From positions 1,536,001-1,600,000 of the forward strand of contig CAXXDV010000003.1 in NCBI GenBank assembly GCA_963674745.2: DNA of 64,000 nucleotides, written 5' to 3'. The first letter of the stretch is position 1. The number at the start of each line of letters is the position of its first letter. This DNA comes from Desulfosudaceae bacterium (lineage in GTDB: Bacteria; Desulfobacterota; Desulfobacteria; Desulfobacterales; Desulfosudaceae). Under the pieces are notes generated by a model. That model ran no database searches, was not told the DNA's origin, and saw only the letters and a program-made list of their open reading frames with translations. This document shows positions 10,837 through 40,933 of this stretch, piece after piece. The translations under genes were made by a program, and so were the position numbers.

Positions 10837-12933
10837 ATGCAATACAGTAGAAAACTTTTTTCCGCGTTACGTATTACCTGCCTGTTAACGATCTTCGTTT
10901 TCGGCCTGCTGTCGATAATCGGTACCGGTGGTGGAGGTGGCGGTGGCAGTCAACCGGACTATTTTCATGACAATGATGGCGATGGCTATGGTGATCCTAA
11001 TGACGCCGGCTTTTTTTCCTATCAACCTCAGGATTATGTCACTGACAACACGGATTGTAATGACAACGATCCAGCCATAAATCCCGGCGCCCCGGAAATC
11101 TGTAGTGACAAAATAGATAATGACTGCGACGGGTTAATAGATGTGAACTGCGTAAGCTGTACCGATGCGGATGCTGACGGCTACTATGCCGAAAGCGGGT
11201 GTAAAACGGACATTGACTGCAATGATAACAACGCGGCCATAAACCCCGGAGCGGCGGAAATCTGCGCCGACGGGATAGACAATGACTGTAATAATGATAT
11301 TGATGAAGATTGCGTTGATTACTATCAGGACATGGATGGTGACAGTTACGGCAACCCTGCCGGAAAAATCTCCGCTGTTTCTCAACCCACAGGTTATGTC
11401 CTTAATGATACGGATTGTAATGATACGAACGCCGGTATCCACCCCGGTGCGACTGAAGTATGCGACGAGAAGGACAACAATTGCGACGGCATCACAGACG
11501 AAGGTTGTTTCGCGTTTTTTCAGGATGCCGACGGAGATTCTTTCGGCAATCCCCTTGAAAAAATTCTGGCTGCATCTGCGCCAGTCGGATACGTGGATGA
11601 CGATTCAGACTGTGATGACACAAGAACTTATATTAATCCTGCTGCCGCCGAAATCTGTGATGGTATGGACAACAACTGCAACGGTGTCACTGACGAAGGA
11701 TGTAGCAGAAATTTTTACGAAGATGCCGACGGAGACATTTACGGCAATCCGGCAGTTGCTGTCGTGGCGATTTTCGCGCCTCCGGGTTATGTAACCGACA
11801 ATACGGATTGTGATGATACGGATCCCGATATCAATCCCGGCGCCACTGAAATACGGGATGGCGCGGACAATGATTGCGACGGCCTGACTGATGAAGGTCT
11901 TTTTATCCCTGATACAGGCCAGACCAACTGCTATGACGCGGCCGGAACCGTTATCCCCTGCCCTGCTGAAGGAAACGCCTTTTACGGCCAGGACGCCAGT
12001 TATGACATTCATCCGCCTTCATATACAAAACTTGATGCCAACGGTAACGATCTGCCGGCCGGAGCCGCAAACTGGGCCATGGTTCGGGACAACGTCACCG
12101 ACCTGATCTGGGAAGTCAAGACCGACAAAGACGGATTCTTGGATTATAACAACCCTCATGACGCTGATAATACCTATACCTGGTATGATGGATCTACAGG
12201 CACACCTGGGGCCGGAACGGACACAGAAGACTTTATCAATGATTTAAACAACGCCGGTTTCGGCGGGTATTCCGACTGGCGCATGCCGACTCTAAAGGAG
12301 TTGTATTATCTAACAAATCTAAGTAGTGCACCGGCGACTATAAACACCGATTATTTTCCGAACACCATGACCGTTTTGATAAATCCGAGTGTATACTACT
12401 GGTCATCCACTTCTACGACCAATCCTGATATTGCCAGGCTTGTCGATTTTTCCTTTGGCTTGCCAGGATCTTATAATAAGCTTAATGACTGGTATGTACG
12501 TGCAGTTCGTGGGCAACAACACGTCCCCTCATTTACGGATAACGGTGATGGAACAATCACCGATAATGTCACCGGCCTGATGTGGGCCAAGGCAACAGCG
12601 GACACCAATGCGGACTTATTCCTTGATTCAAATGACCAGGTACTCTGGGAAACAGCCCTTTCCTGGTGTGCAGGGTTTTCCCTGGCAGGGTATGATGACT
12701 GGCGCTTGCCGAATGCGCACGAATTCATATCAATTGTGGATTATTCAACCATCGCCCCGGCCATAGATACCACTTATTTCCCGGATACGTTAGGGTTCTA
12801 TTATTGGTCCTCGAGTACGCTGGCCGACAATTCGAGTACCGCATTTGATGTGCATTTTCGCACTGGGGTTTACGCTAATGGTCCAAAACAATACGGTTAT
12901 TACTTTGTCCGACCAGTGCGTGGGGGGCAATAA
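10837..12933 (+). CDS. Secreted protein with MopE-like Asp/Cys repeats and two DUF1566 (Lcl) domains
   Basis: N-terminal TM + poly-Gly; repeated DxDGDGYG...DCND...INPGAxEIC.D.IDNDCDG; PDTGQT; DNVTxLxW; DWRxP..E. Confidence 0.85.
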   Translation: MQYSRKLFSALRITCLLTIFVFGLLSIIGTGGGGGGGSQPDYFHDNDGDGYGDPNDAGFFSYQPQDYVTDNTDCNDNDPAINPGAPEICSDKIDNDCDGLIDVNCVSCTDADADGYYAESGCKTDIDCNDNNAAINPGAAEICADGIDNDCNNDIDEDCVDYYQDMDGDSYGNPAGKISAVSQPTGYVLNDTDCNDTNAGIHPGATEVCDEKDNNCDGITDEGCFAFFQDADGDSFGNPLEKILAASAPVGYVDDDSDCDDTRTYINPAAAEICDGMDNNCNGVTDEGCSRNFYEDADGDIYGNPAVAVVAIFAPPGYVTDNTDCDDTDPDINPGATEIRDGADNDCDGLTDEGLFIPDTGQTNCYDAAGTVIPCPAEGNAFYGQDASYDIHPPSYTKLDANGNDLPAGAANWAMVRDNVTDLIWEVKTDKDGFLDYNNPHDADNTYTWYDGSTGTPGAGTDTEDFINDLNNAGFGGYSDWRMPTLKELYYLTNLSSAPATINTDYFPNTMTVLINPSVYYWSSTSTTNPDIARLVDFSFGLPGSYNKLNDWYVRAVRGQQHVPSFTDNGDGTITDNVTGLMWAKATADTNADLFLDSNDQVLWETALSWCAGFSLAGYDDWRLPNAHEFISIVDYSTIAPAIDTTYFPDTLGFYYWSSSTLADNSSTAFDVHFRTGVYANGPKQYGYYFVRPVRGGQ

Positions 12934-13007: not shown

Positions 13008-13607
13008 TTAGCGCTTCATAAAATATTGTATAAACGGTTCCTGGAACGCCTTGAACAGCTTTTCTATTTCGATATCATCTTTATCAAGGATTAAGGATAA
13101 AAGAGAAATACCTTCTGAAAAGGCGACCAGTCCGGCGCTGATGTGAGGCACTGAATCTTCATCCTTGAAGGTTTGGGTAAGAATCATTTGAATCGTTCCG
13201 ATCCACTCGGAATAGGCTTTCCGGAGTTTCTTTTTTATTTTGGGGTTGTATATCGCCATTTCCTGAAACTCGAGAAATATTTTTGAAAGGTCACGGTTTG
13301 AAGTGATGCGATGGTAGGCGAAATCAAGGCAGGCGCGCATCATATCCTCGGGGTCCTTAAATTCAGGTGTTTTTGAAACCATCCAATTTTCAAAATCAGT
13401 CTTGTAGTGGTCGATGACAAATTCGATATAGTTGAGGAGTATGTCTTCTTTACTTTTATAATAGTAATGCAGCATACCGTGATTGATCCCGGCTACAGCA
13501 GCAATATCTTTAATCGAGGTCTGATTAAACGGTTTTTTTAATAAACACCTGGTCAGTGCATCCATGACCTGTCGACGTCTTTTTTCCTGTATCGGAGTGT
13601 GTGCCAT
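13008..13607 (-). CDS. TetR/AcrR family regulator, divergent from the ald operon
   Basis: TSIKDIAAVAGINHGMLHYYYKSKEDI HTH. Confidence 0.9.
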   Translation of the reverse strand: MAHTPIQEKRRRQVMDALTRCLLKKPFNQTSIKDIAAVAGINHGMLHYYYKSKEDILLNYIEFVIDHYKTDFENWMVSKTPEFKDPEDMMRACLDFAYHRITSNRDLSKIFLEFQEMAIYNPKIKKKLRKAYSEWIGTIQMILTQTFKDEDSVPHISAGLVAFSEGISLLSLILDKDDIEIEKLFKAFQEPFIQYFMKR

Positions 13608-13681
13608 ATTTTGAGTCCTTCCTTTCATTCCATACGAAGACTATATCATCATTAAAAATTATAATTCCAGAAAAAAATTAG

Positions 13682-13774: not shown

Positions 13775-14890
13775 ATGAGAGTCGGCATACCAAAAGAGAT
13801 CAAAAAGCTGGAAAAGCGGGTGGCGGTTACACCGGCAGGCGTTGAGACGTTTATCGCCAGAGGCCATAAAGTTTTTGTGGAAACAGGTGCGGGGGCGGGC
13901 CTGGGAACTTCAGATGAGGATTTTCAGCAGGCAGGAGCGGAAATATTATCGACAGCCGATGATGTCTGGCATGAGGCTGAGATGATTATCAAGGTAAAGG
14001 AGCCGGTTGAACCTGAGTTTGACAGGATGAAGCCCGGCCAGATCCTTTTTACCTATCTTCACCTTGCAGCCGATTCAGAACTCACCCGTAAGTTGCTGGA
14101 AAAAGAAGTGACCGGCATTGCCTATGAAACCGTTCAGTTAAATGACGGCAGCCTGCCACTGCTTGCGCCCATGAGTGAAGTGGCCGGACGCCTGGCCGTA
14201 CAGATGGGATGTTTCTGTTTAGAGTCCAAAAATGGCGGTAAGGGGCTTCTTCTTTCCGGCGTTCCCGGGGTTCCTCCCGCAGAAGTAACCATTATCGGCG
14301 GTGGCATCTCCGGGTTGAATGCCGCGCATTTAGCCGTCGGCATGGGAGCCAGGGTTACGATTCTGGATATTAACATGAACCGTCTGCGTTATATCGAAGA
14401 TATTTTCCATTCCCGGATCGTCACCAGAATGTCCAATACCCGTAATCTTGAAGAAAGTGTTTCTACCGCGGATCTGGTTATCGGGTCGGTTCTCATCCCG
14501 GGTGCCAAAGCACCGAAGCTGATCAACCGTGAGATGCTTTCGGGTATGAAAAACGGGGCGGCATTTGTGGATATCGCTATCGATCAAGGCGGCTGCGCAT
14601 CTACCAGCAGGCCGACAACCCATGACAACCCGACCTTTGTGGAAGAAGGCGTTGTGCATTACTGCGTGACCAATATGCCGGGGGCGGTACCGATGACGTC
14701 TACATATGCCCTGACAAACGTTACCCTGCCTTATGCATTGGCGTTGGCGGACAAAGGGTGTACACTTGCGCTTGAAGAGGATGAATCATTAGCCAAAGGG
14801 CTCAATGTCTATCACGGGCAGCTTGTGAACGAGAAGGTCGCGGAATCACTTGAAATGGATTGCTGTCACGCCCCCGTCTTATACAATTAA
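13775..14890 (+). CDS. ald: Alanine dehydrogenase
   Basis: [55 protein letters not shown]. Confidence 0.95.
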
Positions 14891-14908: not shown

Positions 14909-15826
14909 ATGCCCCCCATTATAGATGCCCATTCTCATATCGGTGATATCCTGTATCCGAACGGCGGCAGGCTTATCGAGCAAAAAGGGGTCCGGAAAAA
15001 GCTGATATTCGATCCCATCACCCTATCGCAGATGGGCTTGAACCGTGATTATGGATTGGGGAACCTGCCTTACAGAATATTCTTACATTGGATTATCCGG
15101 GCCGAACAGGAACGAAATTTTACGGCAACACGGGAGAATGCCCGTAAATCGATGGATAAAAACGGGGTGACGGCTACCTGTTGCATGCCGATTCCGCCCT
15201 ATGTTGTTTTTTCTGACGTTAAAGCGGCGGCAGAAAAAGATCCGGGGCTGATTCCGTTCACAGGGGTTGATTTTTCCGATACATCACACTTGGACGAGCA
15301 GTTTAAAGCCGAAGTGGCGGCAGGCGCAAAAGGCCTGAAACTTCATCCCATCATTCAAAAGATATCGTTTTCCGATGAGCGGCTGATAAAAGCGGTCCGG
15401 GCATTCATGCCGTTTGATCTGCCCATACTGTTTCATGCCGGCGTTTCCAGCTACTATGTAGGCAGCGAGAAAGGAAAAAATATTCCGGAAAATGGCGGTA
15501 TTAAAGAAGCCGAGGAACTGGTTTCCGCCTTTCCGGAAGCAAAATTTATTGTGGGACATGCCGGCATGTTTGACGTCAAAGACGTCATGCAGATGTTGGG
15601 TGGATACCAGAATGTATGGGTGGATACGTCCCTGCAGTCGCCCGGAAAGATACGGAAGTTAATTGATGTGTTCGGGGAGGATAAAGTCCTTTATGCGTCG
15701 GACTGGCCCTACGGGAGCCGAAAACCGGCCATCAAGGCGGTAAAAGCCGCCTGCAAAGGCAATGCGCGACTGGAAAGAAAACTTTTTTATGAAAATGCAT
15801 GCAGCCTGATGAAGATAGAACCATAG
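14909..15826 (+). CDS. Amidohydrolase family (Amidohydro_2) protein
   Basis: IDAHSHIG; GLKLHP; LFHAG; VGHAG; LYASDWP. Confidence 0.85.
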   Translation: MPPIIDAHSHIGDILYPNGGRLIEQKGVRKKLIFDPITLSQMGLNRDYGLGNLPYRIFLHWIIRAEQERNFTATRENARKSMDKNGVTATCCMPIPPYVVFSDVKAAAEKDPGLIPFTGVDFSDTSHLDEQFKAEVAAGAKGLKLHPIIQKISFSDERLIKAVRAFMPFDLPILFHAGVSSYYVGSEKGKNIPENGGIKEAEELVSAFPEAKFIVGHAGMFDVKDVMQMLGGYQNVWVDTSLQSPGKIRKLIDVFGEDKVLYASDWPYGSRKPAIKAVKAACKGNARLERKLFYENACSLMKIEP

Positions 15827-15834
15827 CGATTTAT

Positions 15835-15893
15835 GTAGGGGCACCCCCCTGTGGGTGCCCTTTAATCGGGCGGCCACAGGGGGCCGCCCCTAC
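15835..15893. repeat. GTAG-type REP doublet inside the operon
   Basis: gtaggggcacccccctgtgggtgccc...gggcggccacagggggccgcccctac. Confidence 0.75.
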
Positions 15894-15980
15894 ATTATCT
15901 GCGAGTATGCTGCAACAAAGTATATGCGGTAAAATCGGCTCATGAAATATAAAACATACAACGAGCGAGGAGAAACCATC

Positions 15981-17363
15981 ATGAATCAAACAAGCCGGAA
16001 AACCATATCCCGGAAAGAACGGGATCAGATTTTCGATGCCTTTGGCAAACACATTTCCAAGGGGCAGATCCGTTATCTGACAGCAGGTCACCTGGATATC
16101 CTGGAAGGAGAGCGAGACGGCTTCCGGTTTTATGAAGGCCAAACCGGCAAAAGCTATATCGACGGGTTTTCATCAGCCGGGTGTTTCAATGTCGGGCGCC
16201 GTAATCCGCAGATTATCCAAAAACTGGAAGCGGCTGTGGATGAGTATGATATGGGCACCTATGGCATGCTGTCCGCGCCGAAAATCAAGCTGGCCAAACT
16301 GCTGGCAGACGTGGCCCCGGGTGACTTAAACCGGGTTCTGCTGTGCGGAACCGGCGCTGACGTGGTTGAAGGCGCATTAAAACTGGCCAGGGCCGCCACC
16401 GGGCGCAATGAAATTGTAGCCATGCTCAAGGCCTACCACGGCCATTCCGGGATGAGCCTGTCGGCCAACGGCAAAGACTATTACAAAGAACTGTTCGTGC
16501 CGTTAATGCCGGGTTTTTCCTTTGCCCCCTTTGGTGATCTTGAGGCGATCCGTCAAATGGTGTCCGAACGCACCGCAGCCATCATACTGGAGCCGATTCA
16601 AGGGGAGGGCGGCATACACGTGGGAACGGACGAATACCTCAAGGGGCTTCGTGAAATCTGCGACCAGTACGGAATCATGCTCATATTTGATGAAATCCAG
16701 ACCGGTTTCGGCAGATCCGGCAAACTCTGGGCGTCCGAACATTCCGGTGTGGTACCGGACATGATGCTTCTGGCCAAATCAATCGGCGGTGGGGTGTACC
16801 CCAACGCCGCGATTCTTTATCGCGACCGCAGCGAGCTCACCGACTATGTCGACCGTAACCCCGAGTTTCATCTGTCCATGGGCGGCGGCTCTGATCTGGG
16901 CTGTATTGTGTCCACTGCCGTTATTGAATATATCGTTGAGAATAAAGTCTGGGAAAATGTCGAGAAGATGGGCAACCGGCTGCTGGACGGGCTCCGCAGT
17001 ATTCAGAAGGAAAATCCGGGACTGATCCTGGAAGTCCGCGGCCGGGGCATGATGGTCGGGATCGAGTATAAACAGGAATACATGGGCATGCTCATGTCCG
17101 ATTGCCTGGCATCACACGGCATGTTTTCCGCCTATTCCGGCAATGCGCCCCAGGTGATGCGGTTCCAGTTTCCCACAGCCGCAACAGCCGAAGATATTGA
17201 CGAGGCCCTGGAGGTTATTCGCAAAGCCATCAAGCTGAGCAAACTGTATCTGCTGTTCCTGGGCCCGCTTTCCAAAATCCCCTTTGTCCGGGAAGCGATG
17301 AACAAGGGGGATATTCTGGTCACCATTAATAACTTGCTGCGCAAGGCCGCATTCTGGGGATAA
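15981..17363 (+). CDS. Class III PLP aminotransferase, Lys-containing subunit, with hydrophobic C-terminal extension
   Basis: AYHG; EPIQGEGG; FDEIQTGFGRSG; PDMMLLAKSIGGG (Lys codon 16776-16778); start 15981 follows RBS gaggag. Confidence 0.9.
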   Translation: MNQTSRKTISRKERDQIFDAFGKHISKGQIRYLTAGHLDILEGERDGFRFYEGQTGKSYIDGFSSAGCFNVGRRNPQIIQKLEAAVDEYDMGTYGMLSAPKIKLAKLLADVAPGDLNRVLLCGTGADVVEGALKLARAATGRNEIVAMLKAYHGHSGMSLSANGKDYYKELFVPLMPGFSFAPFGDLEAIRQMVSERTAAIILEPIQGEGGIHVGTDEYLKGLREICDQYGIMLIFDEIQTGFGRSGKLWASEHSGVVPDMMLLAKSIGGGVYPNAAILYRDRSELTDYVDRNPEFHLSMGGGSDLGCIVSTAVIEYIVENKVWENVEKMGNRLLDGLRSIQKENPGLILEVRGRGMMVGIEYKQEYMGMLMSDCLASHGMFSAYSGNAPQVMRFQFPTAATAEDIDEALEVIRKAIKLSKLYLLFLGPLSKIPFVREAMNKGDILVTINNLLRKAAFWG

Positions 17364-17392
17364 TGAAACAAAAAATTTCAGGAGAATGAAAT

Positions 17393-18601
17393 ATGAATAA
17401 ACTTATGGCAGACGCTCAACAGGTATTTGGCAAAGGTGTTGTGGAAAACCTGGTGTCAAAGGGATTGGACTGGCTGGAATCCGGCCGGGAGGGATCGGTT
17501 GTCTATGATTCAACCGGCAAGGAACTCGTTGACTGTTATTGTTCGTCCGGCACGTATAACCTGGGCCGGAAAAACCCCGCCATCGCCCGTGCACTCAAAC
17601 AGGCCATCCATGAAACCGACCAGGGCAATTTTGTCATGATCTCACGGGAAAAGGCGATGTTGTCGGAAAAACTGGCCCGGTTCACCCCGTCCGGACTGGA
17701 CTGTTCTCTGTTTACGGTCGTACGGGGGGAATCCGTGGACGCCGCCTGCAAACTGGCCCGGGGGTATACCGGGAGAACTGAGCTGATCACCGTGGACGGG
17801 GGTTGTTACGGCCCGACCGGGTTTGCCATGAGCCTGTCCGAGCGGGCAGACAAGAAAGACTTCGGCTCCCTGATACCGGATGTTCAGACGATCCCCTTTA
17901 ATGACATCGATGCTGCCGGCAAATCAATCACCCAAAAGACGGCGGCGGTCATCGTAGAACCGGTTCAAACCGAAAACAATTGCCGCACCGCGGACAAGGA
18001 TTACCTCGTTGCCCTGCGTAAATTTTGTGATCAAACCGGGGCGTTGCTGATTTTTGATGAATCCCAGACCGGGTTTGGAAGAACCGGGGAAAAGTTCGCC
18101 TCGGATTATTTCGGCGTGCTGCCGGATATCATGCTCCTCGGTGAAGCCCTGGGCGGCGGTATGTTTCCCTTCTCGGCCATGGTATTTACGAGTACCGTGA
18201 AGGCCTTTTTCGATGCCCATCCCCTGATCCATTTGCTGACATTCGGCGGCCATGATGTGGGCTGCCTGGTCGCGGCCGCGGCCATAAAGGAATATGATCA
18301 GGTACAACCCTGGCAGAACGCCAAAAAACAGGGAAAGATACTGGCGGAAAAGCTGAAAGCACTGGCCGCATCAAACCCGAAGCTGAAATCCGTGCAGGGT
18401 GTCGGCCTGCTGTTGTCCCTGGAATTTGACAGCGCACAAGAGGCCGAAAGTTTCTGCAAAAGCGCGATTCAAAACGGGGTGCTGGTAAAAAGCGGAGAGA
18501 CAGCCAAAAACAGCGTCGTCATCCGCCCTGCCCTCACCATAACCGATCAGGACCTGGATAAAATCGTAACCGGGATAGAAAAGGCGTTATCTGCTCTGTA
18601 A
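17393..18601 (+). CDS. Class III aminotransferase homologue lacking the catalytic lysine
   Basis: FDESQTGFGRTG; PDIMLLGEALGGG (GAA at 18143-18145 in place of Lys); retains LTFGG. Confidence 0.85.
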   Translation: MNKLMADAQQVFGKGVVENLVSKGLDWLESGREGSVVYDSTGKELVDCYCSSGTYNLGRKNPAIARALKQAIHETDQGNFVMISREKAMLSEKLARFTPSGLDCSLFTVVRGESVDAACKLARGYTGRTELITVDGGCYGPTGFAMSLSERADKKDFGSLIPDVQTIPFNDIDAAGKSITQKTAAVIVEPVQTENNCRTADKDYLVALRKFCDQTGALLIFDESQTGFGRTGEKFASDYFGVLPDIMLLGEALGGGMFPFSAMVFTSTVKAFFDAHPLIHLLTFGGHDVGCLVAAAAIKEYDQVQPWQNAKKQGKILAEKLKALAASNPKLKSVQGVGLLLSLEFDSAQEAESFCKSAIQNGVLVKSGETAKNSVVIRPALTITDQDLDKIVTGIEKALSAL

Positions 18602-18615
18602 ACCGGGAACAATTT

Positions 18616-18685
18616 GGGGACGTCTATGTTTTTATGCGTTTCTTAAGTACTGCGGGGAGGAACGCATAAAAACATATACGTCCCC
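18616..18685. repeat. REP family A doublet (GGGGACGTCTATGATTTTATGCGTTTC...GAAACGCATAAAATCATAGACGTCCCC)
   Basis: Long inverted repeat; full copies also at 21514-21582, 43741-43810, 55991-56060. Confidence 0.85.
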
Positions 18686-18736
18686 TTATCTACCCACTGT
18701 CCCCGGAATTCCCATAAAAAATAGCAAGGGGGAACC

Positions 18737-19375
18737 ATGCTGAATATAATTGGTATTTCCGGCAGCCCTGTCAAAGACGGCAATGTGGAGATGCTCCTGC
18801 ACACCATGCTTATGCACGCCGAAGAGCGCGGGGCCACAACAACGGCCATAAATCTATCCCGGCTGCATATTGCAGACTGTAATCATTGCAACTTCTGCCT
18901 CAAACGTCAGAAAGCCGGAAAATACTGCGCCCAAGAGGATGATGTCCAGGGGGTCTATGAACTGCTGGAAGCCGCGGACATTATCGTCCTGGCCAGCCCT
19001 GTCTATTTCATGCGCTTAAGCGGCCAGATGGCGTCTTTTGTAGATCGCCTCCGGGTATTTGTCTTCGGCAATATAGCGGGGGGCCGTCTGAAAAACAAGA
19101 TCGGCATAAGTGCTGCTGTTGCCTGGGCCCGGCATGGCGGGTTCGAGACCACCCACCTGACGCACATCACGGCTTTTCTGACGCTGGAGATGCTGCCGGT
19201 CAGCGTGCACCATTGCATAAGCCCGCTGGGCGCCTCGGCTGTGGCCAGCCAGGGAGGCACCGGATTCTTTGACAAAGCGCATCGTCACGGGGTAACGCTC
19301 GATGAGGCCGGACTGCACTCCGGCAGGGCCATGATCGAGCGCGGCCTGGAACTGGCGAGGCTGGTCAAACGATAA
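18737..19375 (+). CDS. Iron-sulfur flavoprotein / flavodoxin family protein
   Basis: ISGSP..GN; CNHCNFC...C; ASPVYF; FVDRL. Confidence 0.85.
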   Translation: MLNIIGISGSPVKDGNVEMLLHTMLMHAEERGATTTAINLSRLHIADCNHCNFCLKRQKAGKYCAQEDDVQGVYELLEAADIIVLASPVYFMRLSGQMASFVDRLRVFVFGNIAGGRLKNKIGISAAVAWARHGGFETTHLTHITAFLTLEMLPVSVHHCISPLGASAVASQGGTGFFDKAHRHGVTLDEAGLHSGRAMIERGLELARLVKR

Positions 19376-38729: not shown

Positions 38730-39716
38730 TTAAAATCGGGAAATTTTACCCGGAAGAATGTAGTTGTAGGTTTTTTTCATCACGCCTGTCCTGATGAAAC
38801 GATCCAATCGCCGGCACTGCAGGAAAGCCTCAAGGAGGACAACATCTTTTTGGTAAAAGGATTTGATCTCTTTTATGGTAATTTTACGTTGCAGTTTCAG
38901 GTGATGGCCGTTTTCCTCTATCCAACTGTGAATGAAATCCAGTGTGATTTTAATACGGTCCGGCCGGCCCTCCTTGATGTAGTTGGCCAGGTGATCCAGG
39001 ATAATTTCACGTGGGCAAAAATAGGAGTCAAAGTAGCGCTGCATCATACCGAGCCTGTTGAAAATAAACCGCACCGGTAATGGCATGGCTTTTCCGATGA
39101 TGGTGCTGTCAAAAAGATCCGTCGTTCCTTTCCGAATGCAGGGCGTTGCCACATCGAGGAGGCGAATCGTGTCCTTTGTCACATGCCAGTTGGAGATTTG
39201 GGAATCCGCTGCAATGAGAATGTTATCCGGATTGGTGTGGTTGAAAGAAAAGATTTTTTCCGCATTTTCCAGAAAACCGGCGACGACGAAGAACAACGCT
39301 TCGTCTGTCCCGTTTTTTAAAATATCATTTCCCAATTCCGTCCCGGGAAGAGCCGGTTGTGTGAGATAAACAGTAAATCCGCCTACAGGGGCCTTGACGG
39401 AAGCAAAACGGGTGGGAACCACATCCACACCGATGGATTCAAGGGTTTGGCAATACCGTTTGACCAATGCGATATACGAATGAACTTGTGACTCGGTCTC
39501 AAAACCGGACATTCGCTTACACACCCGATCGGGCAGGGCCTTAAGTGTAAGAACCGCAGACACCTCACCACAGGCCACAACCGTTGCGGGCATGACGCCT
39601 GATTCAGGTCTGCAGGGATCAAGCTGATTTTCAAATTGCTGCAGCACCTCTTGTTCCGAAATGTTAAAAGTCGGCGACTGAGGGGTGATTTCATCAGAGG
39701 CGGTCACGGCGTGCAT
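38730..39716 (-). CDS. Hypothetical protein with kinase-like motifs (DUF6206-like)
   Basis: GEVSAV; CKRM; DSQISNW; LLDVATP; overlaps the aminotransferase stop. Confidence 0.55.
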   Translation of the reverse strand: MHAVTASDEITPQSPTFNISEQEVLQQFENQLDPCRPESGVMPATVVACGEVSAVLTLKALPDRVCKRMSGFETESQVHSYIALVKRYCQTLESIGVDVVPTRFASVKAPVGGFTVYLTQPALPGTELGNDILKNGTDEALFFVVAGFLENAEKIFSFNHTNPDNILIAADSQISNWHVTKDTIRLLDVATPCIRKGTTDLFDSTIIGKAMPLPVRFIFNRLGMMQRYFDSYFCPREIILDHLANYIKEGRPDRIKITLDFIHSWIEENGHHLKLQRKITIKEIKSFYQKDVVLLEAFLQCRRLDRFIRTGVMKKTYNYILPGKISRF

Positions 39717-40933
39717 ATTTTCAAGGCCTCCTCAAATCGGGAAAGGATATCGTCGATTAACGGTTGATCCAGGTAAAGCCAGGGTTTGCATTGCATTACC
39801 GAATAGTCGAAACCGGCGATCATGGCCCAGATACCGTTTTCATATAGCGCCTTACACATGCTTACCGCCCCGAAAGGATTATCATATTGAAGGCCGATCA
39901 CCAGTCCGCACTGTCTGATTTCTTTTAAAAACGGATAACGGCTTTTAAGGTCGGCAAATCCCTTGCCTAAAATTGCGGCATTTTTTCTAACCGAGGCCAG
40001 GATTTCCGGATCAGAGCAGATGTCCAGAACACGGGAGGCCACATGACACCCCGGTTCTGCGCCCCCAAAAGTGGAAATATGACCGAAACCGTTTTCCGTA
40101 AGCCATCCCCCGTATTTTTTTGAAATGACGGTGGCTGAAATGGGGTAGATGCCGCCCGAGAGCCCCTTGCCCGTGACCAGAATATCCGGGATTATCCCGA
40201 ATGTTTCCACTCCCCAGAGATGCCCCGTTCGCCCCAGGCCTGTTTGTACTTCATCGGCAATATAAAGCGCGCCGTATTTATCACACAGTTTCCTGACCCC
40301 CTCGAGGTAGCCATCTTCGGGAAGCGGAAAGCCGTATGTTGCCGGTATGGTTTCCATGATGACGGCTGCTGTTTTTTCCTTCTCGAGAATCTTCTCCATT
40401 GCGGAAAGATCATTGAAGGGGACATGAATGTATTCATCTTGCGACCCCCTGCTCAGGAAAAAGTCAGCGTTTTTCGGATCCCCTACATTGCCGGAAAGGC
40501 CTGTGCTGCCGTGGTACCCCTTGTCCAGGGAAACGATTTGCCGCCTTTGTGTGGCCCACCTGGCAGTTTTTATGGCAATGTCTACGGCTTCGCTGCCGCC
40601 GGTAGCAAAGACAGTGTAGTGAAGATCTCCCGGTGTTTTCTCTGCCAGTTTCCCGGCCAAAACGGCCCTTGCTTCAGAGGCAAAATGGTGGTTCCCAATA
40701 TCTGTTTCTTCAAGTGCGGACGTTAGTATGCGGATCAGTTCCGGATGACGATGTCCCAGGTTGAAGGTGCCGCCGTTAATATGCAGGTCTATGAGCCGCT
40801 GTCCGTCAATGTCAAAAATATAGGGCCCTTCCCTTTTGCCGATTACAAGATCGATGCCGATCTGATGAAATGTATTTATTTTCCCGGGGCAAACATACTC
40901 CCTGGCCATTTTGAAAATGTCCTTTTTTTCCAT
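39704..40933 (-). CDS. Class III PLP aminotransferase (all motifs intact)
   Basis: GGSEAVD; GYHG; DEVQTGLGRTG; PDILVTGKGLSGG; HISTFGG; start MEKKD after RBS. Confidence 0.9.
   Translation of the reverse strand: MEKKDIFKMAREYVCPGKINTFHQIGIDLVIGKREGPYIFDIDGQRLIDLHINGGTFNLGHRHPELIRILTSALEETDIGNHHFASEARAVLAGKLAEKTPGDLHYTVFATGGSEAVDIAIKTARWATQRRQIVSLDKGYHGSTGLSGNVGDPKNADFFLSRGSQDEYIHVPFNDLSAMEKILEKEKTAAVIMETIPATYGFPLPEDGYLEGVRKLCDKYGALYIADEVQTGLGRTGHLWGVETFGIIPDILVTGKGLSGGIYPISATVISKKYGGWLTENGFGHISTFGGAEPGCHVASRVLDICSDPEILASVRKNAAILGKGFADLKSRYPFLKEIRQCGLVIGLQYDNPFGAVSMCKALYENGIWAMIAGFDYSVMQCKPWLYLDQPLIDDILSRFEEALKICTP

Follow-up and report, generated by a model that had tools for sequence, protein, structure and literature searches.

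Annotation and biocatalysis work on omega-transaminases alike take class III aminotransferases to be symmetric homodimers. In a stretch of 64,000 nucleotides from a Desulfosudaceae bacterium (NCBI GenBank assembly GCA_963674745.2, contig CAXXDV010000003.1, positions 1,536,001 to 1,600,000 of the forward strand), which is referred to here as the window and in which coordinates are counted from the first letter, two tandem genes, designated gene 1 and gene 2, encode class III paralogues between which the cofactor site appears to be split by reciprocal losses. With an estimated probability of roughly 0.72, these genes encode the alpha and beta subunits, respectively, of an obligate heteromeric class III (fold-type I) aminotransferase with one composite pyridoxal 5'-phosphate (PLP) site. 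The core of this interpretation appears well supported in silico, and an alpha-beta class III aminotransferase of this kind is apparently conserved, widespread, and undescribed.

Precedents exist outside class III for related fold-type I chains that share one active site. The two-subunit P-protein of glycine decarboxylase in many bacteria (GcvPA/GcvPB), which has long been known, pairs two related fold-type I chains, only one of which carries PLP, and has one site per alpha-beta unit; this enzyme is a decarboxylase, placed on a remote fold-type I branch outside class III. In serine palmitoyltransferase (SPT), as outlined in PMC3794620, only one of the subunits LCB1 and LCB2 carries the PLP lysine, while the other keeps residues thought to complete the shared site, which bears out the Lys-less/Lys-bearing precedent invoked in an earlier reading of the window made from its letters alone (hereafter, the sequence-only reading). 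In that outline, the SPT subunits resemble genes 1 and 2 as homologous fold-type I proteins with, as proposed here, a single shared site, whereas SPT is a membrane-bound, eukaryotic alpha-oxoamine synthase with small activating subunits.

Among aminotransferases, SerTA (Ser4/Ser5) from Serratia sp. ATCC 39006 was described in 2024 as a hetero-oligomeric sugar-type enzyme and is, by its authors' account, the first heterooligomeric aminotransferase to be studied (PMC11726168). According to the description given there, SerTA is encoded, like the present pair, by tandem paralogous fold-type I genes, one of which lacks the lysine, and it forms one active site per heterodimer and depends for activity on residues of the Lys-less chain (PMC11726168). 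It differs in belonging to the DegT/sugar aminotransferase family, in the truncation of Ser4 at both ends, whereas gene 2 is full length, and in its location within a secondary-metabolite cluster with a carrier protein, whereas the gene pair in the window lies in an apparently catabolic context. The loss of the Thr loop in gene 1, reciprocal to the loss of the lysine in gene 2, has no counterpart reported for Ser5 in that description (PMC11726168). The feature that marks LCB1/LCB2- and SerTA-type enzymes, namely paralogous subunits encoded together with the lysine on one of them, is found in genes 1 and 2. A search of open-access full text for heteromeric aminotransferases or transaminases returned only SerTA, and none for class III.

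The closest solved relative of both genes, with the same fold and motif order, is the putrescine aminotransferase YgjG/PatA (4uox; NF008570 is the best NCBIfam model). In YgjG, as described in PMC4244111, PLP is bound to Lys300, Asp271 contacts the pyridine nitrogen, Gly150 and Thr151 together with Thr332 of the partner subunit bind the phosphate, the ring is sandwiched by Phe180 and Val273, and Glu243, Gln274, and Arg426 are strictly conserved. The contact made by Thr332 confirms the role across the dimer that the sequence-only reading had ascribed to the Thr loop. The YgjG homodimer has two identical sites, whereas in the window these roles are distributed over two genes, such that gene 1 matches all of the described own-subunit contacts and gene 2 matches the trans contact. 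The amino acceptor of YgjG is 2-oxoglutarate, whereas an alanine dehydrogenase gene beside the pair points to pyruvate.

Alignment of genes 1 and 2 to Escherichia coli YgjG (4uox) gives the correspondence listed in Table 1.

Table 1. Cofactor-site positions of YgjG and the aligned residues of genes 1 and 2
Role	YgjG	Gene 1	Gene 2
Phosphate cup	Gly150-Thr151	Gly125-Ala126	Arg111-Gly112
Ring stack	Phe180	Tyr152	Cys138
	Glu243	Glu209	Glu194
	Asp271	Asp237	Asp222
Ring face	Val273	Ile239	Ser224
	Gln274	Gln240	Gln225
Schiff base	Lys300	Lys266	Glu251
	Arg426	Arg394	Arg378
Given to partner	Thr332*	Met300	Thr283

Gene 1 contains the motifs LLAKSIGGG, AYHGHSG, FDEIQTG, and FHLSMGGGSD, with His153 beside Tyr152, while gene 2 contains LLGEALGGG, VVRGESVD, GCYGPTG, FDESQTG, and HLLTFGGHD, and its Glu251 aligns exactly with the PLP lysine. 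A self-sufficient class III subunit has a Schiff-base Lys, a phosphate cup of Gly-(Thr/Ser/Ala) at a helix N-terminus, and a TFGG Thr for its partner. Gene 1 possesses the Lys and the cup and has Met300 in place of the Thr; gene 2 possesses the Thr (Thr283) and has Glu251 and Arg111-Gly112 in place of the Lys and the cup. The motifs picked out in the sequence-only reading agree with this alignment, residue by residue in gene 1 (Lys, YHG, and DEIQ kept, Thr loop altered to HLSMGGGS) and equally in gene 2 (Glu for Lys, a VVRGES cup, CYG, and an intact LTFGG). The class III paralogue elsewhere in the window, which the sequence-only reading took as an internal control with every motif intact, qualifies in part: it has Lys, YHG, DEVQ, TFGG, and a G-S cup, but ETIPATYG replaces EPIQGEGG, and Gln occupies the position of the carboxylate-binding Arg of gene 1.

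The division of residues is maintained across the two families, as examined in the 120 best homologues of gene 2 (52-91% identity) and in 55 full-length orthologues of gene 1. In the gene 2 homologues, the Lys position is occupied by Glu in 120/120 and by Lys in 0/120, Arg111 is present in all 119 that have a residue there, and Thr283 of TFGG is retained in 120/120. The ring-stacking position 138 varies (C49/W38/S17/A10/R2), and the ring-face position, which is Val or Ile in relatives, is Thr78/Ser41/Ile1. In the gene 1 orthologues, the Lys, Tyr-His-Gly, Asp-Glu-x-Gln (DE[IV]Q), Glu209, and Arg394 are each found in 55/55, as is the cup Gly125, while position 300, the site of the TFGG Thr, drifts (H23/S10/L6/Y6/M5/F4/T1). 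In the gene 1 family, therefore, the residues required by its own site are retained and the trans residue is free to vary, whereas the gene 2 family shows the reverse, with its loss fixed. An invariant Thr283 in a protein unable to hold PLP is sensible only as a residue serving the PLP of a partner. Both losses noticed in the single pair of the window are conserved in its tandem orthologues, with a Thr remaining at the gene 1 position in 1/55, and orthologues of gene 2 with Lys, which would have undermined the sequence-only reading, were not encountered among the 120.

Both genes are under purifying selection, with ratios of nonsynonymous to synonymous substitution rates (dN/dS) against three close orthologues of 0.20-0.23 for gene 2 and 0.13-0.22 for gene 1; the mean divergence of gene 2 is 1.14 times that of gene 1. 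The reading frame of gene 2 is intact in all but one of the orthologues seen, the exception (G071:C71:2861-4057, in a genome of the same taxonomic order) having one in-frame TAG, which may stem from sequencing error, mark a pseudogene, or be a recoded codon. A DNA contig from run X1 spans 15865-18800 with 0 differences from the window, and the Glu codon of gene 2 is therefore not an assembly slip.

The physical linkage of the two genes was evaluated by a pattern scan with one genome per species, in which the best 80 of 109 relatives correspond to 79 loci. A gene-2-type gene, defined by at least 45% identity, occurs in 71 of these loci, and the remaining 8 contain ordinary class III genes with 32-46% identity. 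In 63/71, the next gene upstream, in the same orientation, is of gene 1 type; in the other eight, gene 2 begins at the first bases of its contig (seven loci) or is represented by a gene fragment (L075), and the tandem arrangement is found in 63/63 loci with upstream DNA. The fragment (L075:646-1074) is a lone piece of 140 amino acids with 59% identity to the C-terminal third of gene 2, and the same metagenome-assembled genome holds a full pair (L002). A phyletic profile of 401 genomes of the class placed gene-1-type genes (at least 53% identity) in 15 genomes and gene-2-type genes (at least 51%) in the same 15; the two are adjacent in 14 of them, and the remaining genome (G161) has both as fragments on separate small contigs. 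The pair has been seen in at least 63 species-level genomes from Desulfobacterales, other Thermodesulfobacteriota, Leptospirales, SAR324, Bacteroidales, and further lineages.

Natural fusions of the two genes also exist. A search among longer proteins yielded four clusters (P0121-P0124, 851-906 amino acids) in which a gene-1-type half is followed by the tail of that family, a Pro/Ser-rich linker, and a gene-2-type half. The N-terminal halves keep AKS, YHG, and DEIQ and have a degenerate loop, while the C-terminal halves show R-[GS]-E, GEA, and TFGG. One of these clusters has 11 members, nine of them of 848-861 amino acids, from NCBI, JGI, ENA, and Logan assemblies and on contigs of up to 730 kb; since its members come from several independent sources and long contigs, the fusion is not a gene-calling accident.

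In a phylogenetic tree, each of the two families is monophyletic (supports of 0.978 and 1.0) with mirrored topology, and their pairwise distances correlate with r = 0.91. The sister group of the gene 1 family is another tandem class III pair, termed h1/h2 (L080-L085; genomes G219, G324, G259, G014, G351, and G060 of the same taxonomic order), and gene 2 branched off before gene 1 and h1/h2 separated. Gene 1 is closest in sequence to these proteins (46-48% and 41-42% identity for h1 and h2, respectively), which are arranged in tandem like genes 1 and 2, but unlike them h1 and h2 both keep Lys, YHG, DE[IV]Q, and EPVQGEGG, with TFGG in h1 and SFGG in h2, and they lack the C-terminal tail. Homologues of the alanine dehydrogenase, TetR regulator, and amidohydrolase genes that neighbour the pair in the window were not found near h1/h2 in the stretches fetched. 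Tandem class III pairs hence occur both in undegenerate and in complementary form, and h1/h2 may represent either an early-stage heteromer or two independent enzymes.

Structure prediction for a complex of genes 1 and 2 gave an ipSAE (interaction prediction score from aligned errors) of 0.96 in three runs, with 0.00 for the best control; the mark used for this score is reached by 116/157 solved complexes and by 2/215 mismatched pairs. The runs share at least 95% of contacts, with a partner pLDDT (predicted local distance difference test) of at least 94, and the confident interface comprises residues 265-266 (including Lys266) and 289-302 of gene 1 and residues 251 and 273-285 of gene 2. Symmetry-related contacts look alike on both sides among the 25 best contacts, and a charge swap was uninformative. 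The fold of the fusion P0122, predicted from an alignment of the 4 fusions, was too poor to read (mean pLDDT 56.5, predicted template modelling score 0.48).

Gene 1 carries a conserved C-terminal extension of ~45 amino acids (residues ~418-460; core Y-L-x-x-L-x-P-L-[AS]-[KR]-[IV]-P), which is modelled as three helices with pLDDT 56-82 and precedes the linker in the fusions. A role as a clamp on gene 2 was rejected, as no residue beyond 384 belongs to the confident interface, and a role as a membrane anchor or lipid cue was likewise rejected, given the three modelled helices and a longest uncharged hydrophobic run of ~9 residues. The suggestion that a hydrophobic tail hints at a lipophilic amine substrate found no support, since the tail has no hydrophobic run of membrane length and nothing ties it to such a substrate.

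Both genes belong to the class III family over their full length, as indicated by PF00202 matches in Pfam (gene 1, 285.4 bits, E 8e-85; gene 2, 261.9 bits, E 1e-77; gathering score 30.5 bits), and they share 34% identity. Among named families and structures, both come closest to putrescine aminotransferase models and YgjG structures. The NCBIfam matches (best 25 of 71 for gene 1 and of 69 for gene 2) all fall far below cut-off, including NF008570 (326.5 and 253.7 bits for genes 1 and 2; equivalog cut-off 612) and TIGR03372 (265.4 and 224.9 bits; equivalog cut-off 658.65), and because of these low scores neither gene is a PatA orthologue. An alternative ATG for gene 1 exists at 15942; the start in Table 2 is preferred because GAGGAG lies 8 nt upstream of it and close orthologues align from residue 1. 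The two same-strand open reading frames (ORFs) form a single operon: the AGGAG in the spacer stands 8 nt before the gene 2 ATG, no terminator-like site was seen in the spacer, and the spacing in the 63 related pairs is mostly 16-50 nt. Contigs from RNA libraries of relatives cross the junction of the two genes (X23, 15961-17856, 133 differences; X22, 16777-17921, 89 differences), which is compatible with co-transcription and is no proof of a single transcript; depth is low in places along the RNA-library contigs.

Table 2. Features of the window mentioned in the text (aa, amino acids)
Feature	Coordinates	Strand	Remarks
698-aa protein	10837..12933		signal-like N-terminus
TetR-family regulator	13008..13628	-	BetI-type C-terminal domain; divergent
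Alanine dehydrogenase	13775..14890	+	TIGR00518, 539.8 bits (cut-off 391.85); same operon
Amidohydro_2 metal-dependent hydrolase	14909..15826	+	PF04909; same operon
Repetitive extragenic palindromic (REP)-like repeat	15833..15895		~62 nt, GC-rich
Gene 1 (alpha)	15981..17363	+	460 aa; Lys-bearing class III aminotransferase subunit
Spacer, gene 1 to gene 2	17364..17392	+	29 nt; contains AGGAG ribosome-binding site
Gene 2 (beta)	17393..18601	+	402 aa; Lys-less class III paralogue
Long-hairpin repeat	18617..18685		~70 nt
Flavin mononucleotide (FMN)-reductase-like gene	18737..19375		
ORF	38730..39716	-	328 aa
Class III paralogue	39704..40933	-	

The neighbourhood of the pair offers clues to its pathway (Table 2). 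Among the 63 related pairs, an alanine dehydrogenase orthologue, scored within 6 kb, is near 29, an amidohydrolase is also near 29 but belongs to two unrelated types (Amidohydro_2 in 14 and Amidohydro_3 in 15), and a homologue of the TetR regulator, which is likely the repressor of the operon, is near 34. Taken together, the regulator, the alanine dehydrogenase, one of the two amidohydrolases, and the pair appear to constitute an amine or amide catabolic route in anaerobes. Coupling of an amine:pyruvate transaminase to alanine dehydrogenase is exemplified in taurine catabolism, and since alanine dehydrogenase is a frequent neighbour here, the amino acceptor is probably pyruvate, to which the dehydrogenase likely recycles alanine for the transaminase. 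The amine is perhaps released from an amide, because an amidohydrolase accompanies 29/63 pairs; searches of NCBIfam and PDB sequences with both amidohydrolase types gave, as clues to the substrate, only uncharacterised or far-below-cut-off relatives. Two further neighbours were rejected as members of the system, namely the FMN-reductase-like gene, of which no homologue lies near any of the 63 pairs, and a molybdopterin oxidoreductase gene, which is near only 4/63. A membrane protein of 153 amino acids encoded downstream of the pair was not counted as part of the system.

If genes 1 and 2 do form a heteromer, the functional unit would be an alpha-beta dimer, possibly a dimer of such dimers. Gene 1 would supply Lys266, the phosphate cup, the ring-stacking Tyr152, Asp237 and Gln240, and the Glu209-Arg394 pair, while Thr283 in the TFGG loop of gene 2 would cross the interface to bind the cofactor phosphate, and gene 2 would probably lend pocket-lining or other loop residues as well. 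A site centred on gene 2 would be unable to form a Schiff base, having Glu251 and Arg111-Gly112 and neither a stacking aromatic nor a Thr contributed by gene 1, and its empty pocket is probably filled by a side-chain network centred on Arg111 and Glu251. The amino group would most likely be moved from an amine to pyruvate, which the alanine dehydrogenase would regenerate, and the amidohydrolase may free the amine from an amide.

The composite site put forward in the sequence-only reading gains from the Lys-bearing/Lys-less split, the tandem co-occurrence, the natural fusions, and the complementary conservation, and it is from these sequence features that we infer a physical pairing that is obligate and holds one PLP per dimer. 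The accompanying statement that each subunit kept only its own half needs correction, as gene 2 retains Asp222, Gln225, Glu194, and Arg378, and its Arg111 and Glu251 are invariant; the gene 2 pocket looks remodelled and conserved, not merely decayed. Several points weigh against the heteromeric reading. Judged from the homologues, the near-invariance of Glu194 (120/120), Asp222 (119/120), Gln225 (116/120), and Arg378 (119/120) would exceed the needs of a pure donor subunit. A gene 1 homodimer would miss only the trans Thr and could retain PLP binding and partial activity; position 299 of gene 1 is S47/T8, and this Ser or Thr may partly replace the lost Thr if the loop shifts. The term obligate is based solely on co-occurrence, and because tandem genes share their history anyway, the mirroring of the trees says little about contact. 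The high ipSAE may only mirror likeness to solved class III homodimers, and the prediction, which covers the heterodimer alone and offers no comparison of hetero- with homodimer, would be expected to succeed for any pair of class III paralogues. Moreover, alanine dehydrogenase is not within 6 kb of 34/63 pairs, three Desulfoluna isolates included.

The retained residues of gene 2 lend themselves to the main alternative, in which a heterodimer does form and the gene 2 pocket is a rebuilt, conserved ligand site for an effector or for non-covalently held pyridoxamine 5'-phosphate (PMP) or PLP, serving as a second catalytic or allosteric site of an enzyme that would be asymmetric. Arg111 would then bind a phosphate or carboxylate, and Asp222, Gln225, Glu194, and Arg378 would hold the cofactor or effector; these four residues, Arg111, and Glu251 are indeed conserved like catalytic ones. 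ColD and the E1 sugar dehydratases are examples of PMP-using fold-type I enzymes without the lysine, and an Arg binds the PLP phosphate in aspartate aminotransferase. Such a site is nevertheless considered unlikely, as residues vary freely at the ring-stacking position (C49/W38/S17/A10), Thr/Ser has replaced Val/Ile on the opposite face of the ring, gene 1 no longer offers a trans Thr and is variable at that position, the change from Gly to Arg falls where the phosphate normally packs on the backbone, and the conserved residues could equally be structural salt bridges. That no heteromer forms at all, with gene 1 acting as a homodimeric transaminase and gene 2 as a separate protein of the same pathway, either non-catalytic (binding, sensor, or chaperone) or an enzyme of other chemistry, is judged quite improbable. 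Gene 1 has all residues of its own site, operon partners need no contact, and complex prediction cannot separate the likeness of paralogues from real pairing, all of which suits two independent proteins; yet the invariance of Thr283 in TFGG (120/120) against the drift in gene 1 would remain unexplained, as would the recurrent end-to-end fusions and the adjacency in all 63 loci that have upstream DNA. The somewhat faster evolution of gene 2 (ratio 1.14) and the in-frame TAG of the G071 orthologue could be taken as signs of a decaying duplicate, or the Glu as a sequencing error, but this explanation is refuted, with a negligible residual probability, by the Glu in 120/120 homologues down to 52% identity, the dN/dS of 0.20-0.23, the DNA contig with 0 differences, and a frame that is nearly always intact.

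If the heteromeric reading is true, LCB1/LCB2 and SerTA would have a soluble, bacterial counterpart in class III, and the automatic label "putrescine/acetylornithine aminotransferase" would be wrong for gene 2 and unsupported for gene 1. The pair would also provide a natural system for asking why an enzyme abandons one of its two sites, with half-of-sites control, a rebuilt second pocket, and a larger substrate as possible answers. Should the second pocket prove to be rebuilt, a classical PLP site would be coupled to a second site with another function, and the resulting built-in allostery or two-step chemistry would have no known parallel among aminotransferases.

Several minor observations concern the surroundings of the pair. 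The 3' end of the class III paralogue elsewhere in the window overlaps the start of an ORF on the same strand whose family was not recognised, and the two may be another functional pair. The protein of 698 amino acids has at least five Cys/Asp-rich modules (...DxDCDDxxxxIxPGAxExCDGxDNxC...) and a C-terminal domain with repeated DWRLP/DWRMP motifs. Between the amidohydrolase gene and gene 1 lies the palindromic REP-like repeat (GTAGGGGC...GCCCCTAC), which has 57 matches, both strands counted, in its own genome, including a tandem array (G000:C3:1114806-1115405). Just 3' of gene 2 stands the long-hairpin repeat, with further copies at ~21514, 43740, and 55990 and partial ones at ~37715, 48637, and 54288, and most of its full genomic copies fall within the window.

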